A stretch of 64,000 nucleotides of DNA, from NCBI RefSeq assembly GCF_030384885.1, contig NZ_CP128613.1; one strand, given 5' to 3'. This DNA comes from Escherichia coli (GTDB lineage Bacteria > Pseudomonadota > Gammaproteobacteria > Enterobacterales > Enterobacteriaceae). Shown here piece after piece: positions 4,514 to 51,167 of the stretch. The translations under genes and the position numbers were made by a program. The notes under the pieces are model-generated. The model saw only the letters and a list, made by a program, of their open reading frames with translations. It was not told where the DNA came from and searched no databases. How positions within the stretch are numbered: position 1 is the first letter of the stretch; every line of letters begins with the position of its first letter.

Positions 4514-5740
4514 ATGTCACCCTGTGAAAATGACACCCCTATAAACTGGAAACGAAACCTGATCGTCGCCTGGCTAGGCTGTTTTCTTACCGGTGCCGCC
4601 TTCAGCCTGGTAATGCCCTTCTTACCCCTCTACGTTGAGCAGCTTGGCGTTACGGGCCACTCCGCCTTGAATATGTGGTCCGGTATTGTCTTCAGCATTA
4701 CATTTTTATTTTCGGCCATCGCCTCACCGTTTTGGGGTGGACTCGCCGACCGTAAAGGCCGAAAACTCATGCTATTACGCTCTGCCCTCGGCATGGGCAT
4801 CGTGATGGTGTTGATGGGGCTGGCACAAAATATCTGGCAGTTTTTGATCCTGCGGGCGCTGCTTGGTTTGCTTGGCGGATTTGTTCCCAACGCTAACGCA
4901 CTGATCGCCACACAAGTACCGCGTAATAAAAGCGGCTGGGCGCTGGGTACGCTCTCCACAGGCGGCGTTAGCGGCGCGTTGCTCGGCCCAATGGCTGGTG
5001 GTTTGCTTGCCGATAGCTACGGCTTACGTCCGGTATTCTTTATTACCGCCAGTGTGCTGATACTTTGCTTTTTCGTCACCCTGTTTTGCATCCGAGAAAA
5101 ATTCCAGCCAGTCAGCAAAAAAGAGATGCTGCATATGCGGGAAGTGGTGACATCACTTAAAAACCCGAAACTGGTACTCAGCCTGTTTGTCACCACGTTA
5201 ATCATCCAGGTGGCGACGGGCTCAATTGCCCCCATTCTGACGCTGTATGTCCGCGAACTGGCGGGTAACGTCAGTAACGTCGCCTTTATCAGTGGCATGA
5301 TCGCCTCGGTGCCAGGCGTGGCTGCTCTGCTGAGTGCACCACGACTCGGCAAACTTGGCGATCGAATCGGCCCCGAAAAGATCCTGATTACGGCGCTGAT
5401 CTTTTCTGTACTGCTGTTGATCCCAATGTCTTATGTTCAGACGCCATTGCAACTTGGGATTTTACGTTTTTTGCTCGGTGCCGCGGATGGTGCATTACTC
5501 CCCGCCGTACAGACACTGTTAGTTTACAACTCGAGCAACCAAATCGCCGGGCGTATCTTCAGCTATAACCAATCGTTTCGTGATATTGGCAACGTTACCG
5601 GACCATTGATGGGAGCAGCGATTTCAGCGAACTACGGTTTCAGAGCGGTATTCCTCGTCACCGCTGGCGTAGTGTTATTCAACGCAGTCTATTCATGGAA
5701 CAGTCTGCGCCGTCGTCGGATACCCCAGGTATCGAACTGA
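4514..5740 (+). CDS. mdtG: MFS multidrug efflux transporter MdtG (408 aa)
   Basis: 408-aa ORF with MFS-type hydrophobic repeats; synteny with lpxL and msyB. Confidence 0.9.
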
Positions 5741-49732: not shown

Positions 49733-49759
49733 CTCCCCCGTAGTGAACGGGGGAGTTTT
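49733..49759 (+). terminator. Rho-independent terminator after yccJ
   Basis: ctcccccg-tagtgaa-cgggggag followed by tttt. Confidence 0.75.
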
Positions 49760-50259
49760 CGATTATTCATTGACCAACGTCTCATGTCCTGTTATTACTG
49801 TGAGATATTCAATCACGTTATCAAATAAAAAAATCGATATCATTGCGGTAAGCTTGTTATTGATTATAAATATGGGTAATAAGCGATATCCAGCATGAAT
49901 TTGATTGTACAGGGTATTTCCTATATAGCCATTGGTTAAATCTTGAAGATAAGATACCTCCGGCTGAAAAATCCATCCCGGCAATGAAGGATGTGATATT
50001 TTCGTAATTCTCTTGCAGAATAAACAACCCTGGATACGCTCTGAATACAAGGAAATTTTCCAATAAATTATTTATTCATCAATACTCCCCGGCGAGGATC
50101 ATCAAAATATCTCATTATCTTTTAAAACTGCCCAGCCCGTTATAACGGACGTTATCTGGCGCACGCTGAAGTGGGCATGATACTCACTTTCATTAAAATG
50201 CTCGACATGATTTGCTAATCGCTTAGCTAGATAATTGACGTTCAGTCTGTGCCAAATTT

Positions 50260-50619
50260 TTAGCGAAAAATAGCAAATTTAAGCCGGGAATTTATCAAAG
50301 CATCCTCATTTACTTCACCATGAACAATAAAGTCACGCATAAACTGCAGGTGTTTAATTAATAAAATCCATTCACTTTCAGTAAGATAGTTTTTCCCACG
50401 CAGATTATAATACAGAGATTTGATTAATGGGATCTTCTGCTTATGGCGCTTTGACCGCGCTGAGCACAATATTTGTTCTATCAGGCCAAGCGTCCCTTTC
50501 TGACGCAACCAGCACCGGAGTTCAGACTGCGCGCTAATGCCGCGAGCCACCGACAAATGTATTTGGGTAAGCAATGCGTATAAACCTAATAAAAACGCGT
50601 CGTGATAATACCGCTTCAT
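50260..50619 (-). CDS. Hypothetical protein (119 aa) in an AT-rich insertion; C-terminal R-x4-H-G motif (HEPN-like?)
   Basis: ATG at 50619 preceded at 12 nt by the previous ORF's TAA and an SD-like GAGGTGGG; translation MKRYYHDAFLLGLYALL...HLQFMRDFIVHGEVNEDALINSRLKFAIFR. I recognise no family; the reading frame is open in a very AT-rich context. Confidence 0.5.
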   Translation of the reverse strand: MKRYYHDAFLLGLYALLTQIHLSVARGISAQSELRCWLRQKGTLGLIEQILCSARSKRHKQKIPLIKSLYYNLRGKNYLTESEWILLIKHLQFMRDFIVHGEVNEDALINSRLKFAIFR

Positions 50620-50631
50620 TACCCACCTCTG

Positions 50632-51000
50632 TTATCGTAATTTTTTAAACAAATAATCATATAAAATTTCGGCAATGAATTCTGCATGTTCACGTCGCAC
50701 AATGACATTCATAACGTAATATTGCGCAGCAATTTCATTGATAAAATGTTCAGGCAGTATGAATACGCGTGCATAAGCCGAGTATATTTCCAGTATTTCA
50801 TTTGAGATGTTTTCAAGATCAACGCAATAATTTGTCACATCATAAAAAAGATTAGCGTATTTTTTATTAATTATGCTAAGGCATATAAATGGGGCATTTA
50901 ATTTTTCACACAATTGCCAGTGCGTTCTTTCATTTTCTCCCTTCCATGTATACTTCATTTTGTCAGCCATCCTTTGATTTACGCGTCTGAAGTTTACCAC
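50632..51000 (-). CDS. Hypothetical protein (up to 122 aa; start may be GTG 51000 or the internal ATGs MADK / MKYTW) in an AT-rich insertion
   Basis: Open frame immediately upstream of and co-directional with the 119-aa ORF; candidate -10 TATAAT on the minus strand at 51036-51041. No family recognised. Confidence 0.45.
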   Translation of the reverse strand: MVNFRRVNQRMADKMKYTWKGENERTHWQLCEKLNAPFICLSIINKKYANLFYDVTNYCVDLENISNEILEIYSAYARVFILPEHFINEIAAQYYVMNVIVRREHAEFIAEILYDYLFKKLR

Positions 51001-51098
51001 TGTGTCTGGGGTAAACCATGCGTTCTATGGTAAAAATTATACGAGATGTGGCGCTGCGTAATATTCTGCTCCCTCAATATATTTCTGGTGAATATGTT

Positions 51099-51131
51099 CC
51101 AGGTTAATTGGGAAGATCTGCATGTGATCTT
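51099..51131. repeat. Perfect 13-bp inverted repeat aattgggaagatc-N7-gatcttcccaatt
   Basis: Seen directly; lies ~40 bp beyond the agp stop at the edge of the AT-rich insertion; candidate terminator or protein-binding palindrome. Confidence 0.6.
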
Positions 51132-51167
51132 CCCAATTTTATGACTACAAAATGTCAATAGCCGGGT

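Follow-up and report, generated by a model that had tools for sequence, protein, structure and literature searches.

An AT-rich stretch between yccJ and agp of Escherichia coli consists of two pseudogenes, probable remains of a stand-alone Rhs-type immunity set

The AT-rich tail of the insertion between yccJ and agp described here most probably consists of decaying stand-alone immunity genes of Rhs-type toxin systems, with two of the three genes reduced to pseudogenes. The insertion lies in a stretch of 64,000 nucleotides of Escherichia coli DNA (contig NZ_CP128613.1, RefSeq assembly GCF_030384885.1), to which we refer as the window. Positions 49766-50259 of the window are the dead coding sequence of two genes, here called B and C; a third, gene A, is the only cassette gene that is intact in the window. 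From homology and gene context we infer that all three would be Rhs-type immunity genes separated from any toxin gene—the assignment as a decaying orphan immunity gene is well supported for gene C and moderately supported for genes A and B.

The genes rutF, rutG, ymdF, wrbA and yccJ are found on one side of the insert, and agp and a 417-aa ORF on the other. At the K-12 empty site the convergent stop codons of yccJ and agp are 37 bp apart, and one terminator hairpin serves both; in the window about 1.44 kb of AT-rich DNA lies between the two stop codons, and 49766-50259 makes up the third of it that is proximal to yccJ. The GC content is 0.37 for the whole insert and 0.366 for 49766-50259, as compared to 0.537 for the 5 kb to the left and 0.518 for agp. 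Locus alignment places three co-oriented minus-strand genes, A, B and C, on this insert of 1.4 kb; when intact they encode 108, 172 and 100-105 aa, with 12 nt between A and B and 22 nt between B and C. Of 5,426 complete E. coli genomes, 5 have the insert, in each case between yccJ and agp, and the same site is occupied in records labelled E. fergusonii and E. albertii. The features discussed below are as follows.

49733-49759, plus strand: intrinsic terminator of yccJ, from a terminator scan; hairpin CTCCCCCG-N7-CGGGGGAG and a T-run
49763-50079, minus strand: gene C pseudogene, 105 aa when repaired, from alignment to intact alleles
49763-50050, minus strand: 95-aa ORF, open by accident over some 70 codons, in the +1 frame with respect to gene C
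49857-50063, minus strand: 68-aa ORF, in the true frame of gene C, of which it comprises codons 7-74, with an incidental TTG start and its end at a nonsense codon
50080-50101, minus strand: B-C spacer, read from the sequence, with a Shine-Dalgarno-like GGGGAG 5 nt before the gene C ATG
50102-50619, minus strand: gene B pseudogene, 172 aa when intact, from alignment
50632-50958, minus strand: gene A, 108 aa (WP_000878101), from RefSeq annotation of a near-identical locus and translation
50959-51167, minus strand: cassette leader from the agp stop to gene A, with a hairpin at about 51110-51134 and no recognisable toxin remnant

The left boundary of the insert is the yccJ terminator, whose hairpin itself occupies 49733-49755 and whose T-run is 3 nt from the gene C stop codon; at the K-12 empty site an identical hairpin adjoins the agp stop. 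At the other end of the cassette, a perfect 9-bp hairpin (GGGAAGATC-N7-GATCTTCCC, 51110-51134) lies within the leader, just 3' of the agp stop, and may end or stabilise the agp transcript, so governing read-through into the cassette. The sequence TTATT occurs at both cassette junctions (49760-49768 and 51165-51173), each time overlapping a stop codon—that of gene C and that of agp, respectively—and occurs once at the K-12 empty site (L009, 1490-1510; GAGTTTTCTG/TTATTTCAC). This pattern may reflect microhomology-mediated deletion or insertion, which it fits; chance is also possible in AT-rich DNA. Beyond agp, the 417-aa ORF (52704-53957, minus strand) is AT-rich, as the cassette is; it has no name in RefSeq, where it is a "hypothetical protein", and its product has no recorded Pfam match in related loci.

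No integrase, transposase or tRNA was found at the site in the window or in loci L001-L007; the cassette contains no mobility gene, and no type VI secretion system (T6SS) or Rhs gene adjoins it. No toxin-like ORF was found in 49760-51167, and a 54-aa frame upstream of gene A, compared to the Phytobacter toxin end described below, showed no similarity. A literature search on the yccJ-agp locus found nothing relevant.

The earlier note had described 49766-50259 as roughly 500 bp of AT-rich DNA with no convincing gene, and this description is accurate, since the GC content is low and no intact gene is present. Its picture of a uniform "tail" did not survive; the interval is composed of the gene C pseudogene (49763-50079), a 22-nt spacer, and the 3' third of gene B (50102-50259). 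The two overlapping minus-strand frames that it listed, at 49763-50050 and 49857-50063 with starts 13 nt apart, are there, and the 119-aa ORF does end at 50260.

Gene C in the window is a pseudogene, as the intact orthologues that occupy this locus in other Escherichia (N3 and P0001-P0003) keep a frame that is interrupted here; in N3 a 104-aa gene C is annotated beside yccJ (WP_042004103). Alignment to these orthologues identifies three lesions in the window copy. The first is a 2-nt deletion in the A-run after ATGAATAAA, which leaves a TAA stop at codon 4 (50068-50070); the second is a nonsense change, CAA to TAA, at Q75 in codon 75 (49857-49859); the third is one additional T in a T6 run, which is T7 at 49827-49833. 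Repair of both indels yields a 105-aa frame that matches the intact alleles and is broken by the nonsense codon alone. The 95-aa ORF joins the true gene C frame after the T insertion, such that only its last 22 or so residues (FLFDNVIEYLTVITGHETLVNE) are authentic. Upstream, the B-C spacer with its GGGGAG is conserved in all alleles in the alignment.

Could the two short ORFs be genuine small genes? Both are open, both have TTG starts, and the same frames occur in L001 and L004; however, they are restricted to this one near-identical lineage, and other strains have either a single frame of 100-105 aa or different breaks. Conservation of the same short frames elsewhere, the outcome that the earlier note had set against its own reading, is not what we find—other strains keep the long frame instead. 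The first 70 or so codons of the 95-aa ORF are out of frame relative to the conserved protein, the 68-aa product would start six residues late and would lack the final helix of the five-helix model, and RefSeq annotates neither ORF in the four broken-allele genomes that were inspected. We consider it highly improbable that either one is a gene in its own right.

Gene B has been broken by a single lesion. One nucleotide, a coding-strand G, has been deleted between 50281 and 50280, and what remains open is the 119-aa ORF at 50260-50619, at the site where a 172-aa gene B is annotated in N96 and MFDS1022581. When one G is put back, the result is exactly the 172-aa protein of MFDS1022581; hence, 50102-50259 is the stranded 3' third of gene B, and its last 53 codons have been left as apparent spacer, out of frame. 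An AlphaFold2 model of gene B, built from four sequences, reached a pLDDT of 58 and was left out of the fold search. A HEPN-like RxxxxxxH motif noted by eye in gene B (RLANHVEH) was dropped, as no profile supports it.

Four frame-breaking or stop-creating lesions are thus present within or bordering the interval. A frameshifted remnant gene had been proposed in the earlier note, and the remnant and the frameshift both stand; what does not stand is one gene with one lesion, as there are two genes, with three lesions in gene C and a deletion in gene B. That note had missed that the 119-aa ORF is a truncated 172-aa gene, that the gene C remnant carries three lesions, and that a function can be predicted for the genes. 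The alignment to related loci that it recommended does reveal a longer intact gene, of 100-105 aa, at the same locus in other Escherichia.

Long-read assemblies are prone to error in A or T runs, and two of the indels fall in such runs; this would be the argument for treating the frame breaks as homopolymer sequencing errors, with the genes intact in the living strain. We regard that explanation as very hard to sustain; the window, 2013C-4282 and MFDS1022581 were assembled independently, and all have the gene C lesions (a substitution distinguishes the window from 2013C-4282). Additionally, the CAA to TAA lesion is a substitution, also found in N96, and the gene B deletion lies outside any homopolymer. 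With three such assemblies agreeing on the gene C lesions, and a substitution among those lesions, we take the lesions to be real and sequencing error to be unlikely.

An alternative proposal is that the interval is non-coding yet functional, as a small RNA, as the 3' UTR of yccJ or of the cassette, or as an integration scar. Such a reading could draw on the missing intact ORF, the AT-richness, the adjoining terminator, and the TTATT at both junctions. The alignment counts against it, as the whole interval, base for base, has a counterpart in coding sequence that other strains retain intact, with dN/dS well below 1. The other searches gave it no help; Rfam has no match at E<=1 in the interval, the fold z-scores of the interval (-1.5 and -0.5) are unremarkable, and promoter- and terminator-like matches do not exceed the shuffled expectation, with the exception of the yccJ terminator. 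With coding homology explaining the sequence, we set aside the suggestion of a UTR, small RNA or scar made in the earlier note, and leave it only a slight residual chance.

Intact alleles of gene B or gene C are found in N3, L005/L006, L007, L012-L014, N96 and MFDS1022581. All three genes are intact in other E. coli, in L005/L006 and L012-L014, where they encode 108 aa (A), 172 or 177 aa (B), and 105 or 100 aa (C). Pairwise dN/dS values between intact gene C alleles range from 0.18 to 0.39, which indicates purifying selection on gene C where the gene survives. At the same time, gene C has been broken independently, and by different lesions, in at least four lineages: that of the window, L001 and L004; N96; L010 (labelled E. 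albertii); and L015 (labelled E. fergusonii). The L010/L011 locus (L010, 5928-7299) has an IS, with an rve-family transposase, between the decayed gene C and the yccJ terminator; it is a secondary insertion, and the only IS found at the site.

Several further observations concern how the cassette varies. Between strains, gene C is more divergent than genes A and B or the flanks (in L005, for example, 92.8% as compared to about 99% for A and B), and its C-termini fall into three allele classes, ending ..KTGHDTLVNE, ..RNKERRIGQ and ..AKSVNE; together, the divergence and the allele classes suggest recombination or diversifying pressure on gene C alone. In an Escherichia-like contig (L007, 5405-6358, and L008) gene B is cleanly missing, 57 nt separate gene A from gene C, and a TetR gene is found nearby in place of the rut operon. 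The cassette is thus modular, and its genes come and go individually. Cassette divergence between loci approximately tracks or exceeds agp divergence; the cassette may be ancestral to the genus and mostly lost, or may have spread via recombination of the flanks.

The functional assignment starts with gene C, for which a profile search returned 72 cluster representatives at E<1e-3, nearly all of them 60-140 aa in length and with conserved motifs. Its AlphaFold2 model is a five-helix bundle (pLDDT 91.3), and the nearest structures in a fold search were generic helical bundles. Scans of A, B and C against Pfam, NCBIfam and PADLOC gave only matches below threshold (Rad10 and DNase_II noise), and a Pfam scan of 65 members of the gene C family gave one stray match. 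A comparison of the gene C profile and of the partner toxin domain described next to PDB sequences gave nothing credible, and the toxin domain matched no Pfam family at cut-off.

Relatives of gene C are found 2-11 nt downstream of a toxin domain of about 95 aa in loci L024-L027, L022, L029, L030 and L033; in L019 the distance is about 40 nt. A His and the motif GRVYDA are invariant in this domain, a Cys is near-invariant, and the sequence ends ...INFGF; the Cys/His pattern would fit a papain-like enzyme. This toxin domain is also what precedes the gene C relatives of L019 and L022. In the metagenomic loci L024-L027, the gene C relative lies 11 nt after a gene that encodes PT-HINT and a C-terminal domain of about 95 aa; PT-HINT was identified above the Pfam cut-off (E=1e-7, loci L025/L026), and these loci are alternating toxin/immunity arrays in which Tox-REase-7 is also present. 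The delivery modules found across the toxin-linked loci include RHS, RHS_repeat, PAAR and prePAAR domains, and the DPxGL motif was read in the translations of L029, L031, L032 and L033.

A search with the toxin domain recovered Salmonella proteins. In the Salmonella locus L029, the toxin domain follows the DPxGL end of an Rhs core, and a 98-aa gene C relative (109.7 bits against the gene C family profile) starts 3 nt further on, within an array that has Ntox34 and Peptidase_M91 cassettes. The nearest toxin-linked homologue is in E. coli itself; in strain 2016C-3878 and 33 other complete genomes an orphan Rhs C-terminal fragment that carries the toxin domain (in 2016C-3878, WP_271094341, with the domain beyond DPLGL) is followed, 2 nt on, by a 97-aa gene. 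[quoted passage not shown] Overall, the pairing of the toxin with the gene C family recurs in divergent taxa; sampling from the immunity side gave it in three of five contexts, and sampling from the toxin side in all three.

Rhs C-terminal toxins, which DPxGL demarcates, have their RhsI immunity genes directly 3' of them (PMC3150448). Gene C relatives conform to this arrangement, each being a small gene immediately 3' of a variable, DPxGL-demarcated toxin end, and on these Rhs criteria we assign the gene C family as an immunity family.

Other copies of the family are found in varied settings. Two of them, P0016 (after glpK) and P0027 (between metabolic genes), are toxin-less orphans, as is the Escherichia copy. 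A Salmonella enterica locus (L030, 8001-8464) has a degenerate 74-aa toxin fragment and a truncated 78-aa immunity gene of the gene C-type families, between the cas2/CRISPR end and Peptidase_M28/cysD genes—another decaying copy at a housekeeping junction. The Salmonella loci L028 (3317-8405) and L029, which hold the cognate toxin, contain a long array of orphan toxin and immunity cassettes, among them Peptidase_M91, Ntox34, a HEAT-repeat protein and a number of small genes that lack annotation. No 98-aa immunity gene is called 3' of the toxin in L028, and this copy, too, may be broken.

For genes A and B, the assignment is weaker than for gene C, as each has a single context. A full-length homologue of gene B in Proteus mirabilis (L031; 29% identity; tblastn E=9e-6 in 7.3 Gb, pairwise E=1e-13) directly follows a prePAAR-PAAR-Rhs protein and its DPxGL-delimited toxin end; this context comprises two Proteus records that represent one locus. 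A gene A homologue with 54% identity is encoded on one Phytobacter plasmid (L032), where only 2 nt separate it from the Rhs C-terminal ORF that precedes it; AHH/Imm43 and TNT cassettes belong to the same array. In L031 (4569-5480) the Rhs C-terminal toxin and the gene B homologue share one reading frame and no stop codon divides them, the ATG of the homologue being internal, at 5001; a fusion, loss of the stop or an assembly problem might explain this. PLSDB lists the record as a 4-Mb "plasmid", and it is evidently a chromosome.

The proposed mechanism is that of other immunity proteins: an intact protein would bind and neutralise the cognate toxin domain injected by rival Enterobacteria, probably via a type VI secretion system, and the islet would serve as a small acquired defence against interbacterial attack. 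In the window two of the three genes have decayed, presumably since the matching attackers are no longer met. The all-helical protein of about 105 aa encoded by gene C has been inactivated by the 2-nt deletion, the nonsense substitution and the 1-nt insertion, and the helical 172-aa protein of gene B has been truncated by the 1-nt deletion.

Certain findings count against the immunity reading. Gene C shares only 41% identity with its nearest toxin-linked homologue, genes A and B have one toxin context each, and none of the three families is found in Pfam, NCBIfam or PADLOC. Two of the five sampled family members have no upstream toxin, and no mobility, T6SS or Rhs gene adjoins the cassette; moreover, the frequent independent inactivation could mean that the genes are of little value in Escherichia.

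A different role within the cell must also be considered, in which the cassette is an intracellular toxin-antitoxin-like or anti-phage module, the gene C family is the antitoxin, and the Escherichia copy is a leftover antitoxin set. The metagenomic locus L019 (2246-2927) is the closest to such an arrangement, as its 101-aa toxin domain stands alone with a gene C relative between rpsB and tsf; a toxin with no delivery domain may form a toxin-antitoxin-like or addiction module. There is also precedent in Salmonella, where Rhs elements are reported to be able to act as type II toxin-antitoxin modules (PMC7043789). However, elsewhere the toxin domain is fused to Rhs cores and PT-HINT, which are delivery and pre-toxin modules of secreted polymorphic toxins, and because of this fusion to secretion-linked modules we disfavour an intracellular toxin-antitoxin or defence role. 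PADLOC gives no match for the cassette genes. A single machine of three parts is also hard to square with the toxin partners, since A, B and C each have a different one, in different organisms. On balance, an intracellular module appears doubtful, and stand-alone immunity genes separated from their toxins remain our preferred reading.

A broader form of the immunity reading can be proposed, in which Escherichia maintains a toxin-less, fixed-site "immunity islet" between agp and yccJ that is gained, reshuffled and lost gene by gene, as a miniature enterobacterial counterpart of the AID clusters discussed below. In this proposal gene C would represent an uncatalogued immunity family, a five-helix bundle paired with a likewise uncatalogued Cys/His toxin domain of about 95 aa that is delivered by Rhs and PT-HINT proteins in Salmonella, E. 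coli and many uncultured bacteria. We give this extended proposal, taken as a whole, an equal chance of being right or wrong.

Orphan immunity genes and their decay are already established, and current ideas are not overturned by this locus. For annotation, about 500 bp of apparent spacer become two pseudogenes, and the 119-aa "hypothetical protein" that RefSeq lists for a near-identical strain is a truncated product. The toxin/immunity pair is a family that is missing from Pfam, NCBIfam and PADLOC, and is present in Salmonella and E. coli Rhs loci. The islet has decayed repeatedly and independently, and could serve as a case for studying the time over which an orphan immunity gene remains of use.

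The cassette can be compared to several known systems. The orphan rhs-CT/rhsI modules of Enterobacteria (2011, PMC3150448) are similar in that homologues of A, B and C lie directly 3' of DPxGL-delimited Rhs toxin ends in Phytobacter, Proteus, Salmonella and E. coli. Classical modules of this kind keep a toxin fragment; in contrast, the window has no rhs core, no toxin fragment and no nearby T6SS gene, but only three unrelated immunity-type genes alone between housekeeping genes, two of them broken. The Pfam Imm* families (Imm43, for example) and papain-like toxins share with the cassette the combination of a cytoplasmic-looking helical protein of about 100 aa and a short C-terminal toxin of the Cys/His/Asp type, whereas A, B, C and the partner toxin domain match no Pfam, NCBIfam or PADLOC model. 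In the orphan immunity arrays of Vibrio cholerae T6SS auxiliary clusters, as reported by Kirchberger et al. 2017 (PMC5361080), immunity genes are likewise kept after an effector has been displaced or lost; the Vibrio arrays stay inside T6SS effector loci, whereas the cassette is far from any such locus. The AID clusters of Bacteroidales are toxin-less immunity arrays that include distant homologues and pseudogenised remnants, and that protect Bacteroides, with the T6SS effectors of competitors as the proposed targets (Ross et al., bioRxiv 10.1101/471110). They are large, located on ICEs or associated with recombinases, and experimentally supported, whereas the cassette has three genes, no mobility gene, one chromosomal site in records from three Escherichia species, and an immunity role predicted from sequence. 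What the two have in common is several immunity families without cognate toxins—in the cassette, three mutually unrelated genes.
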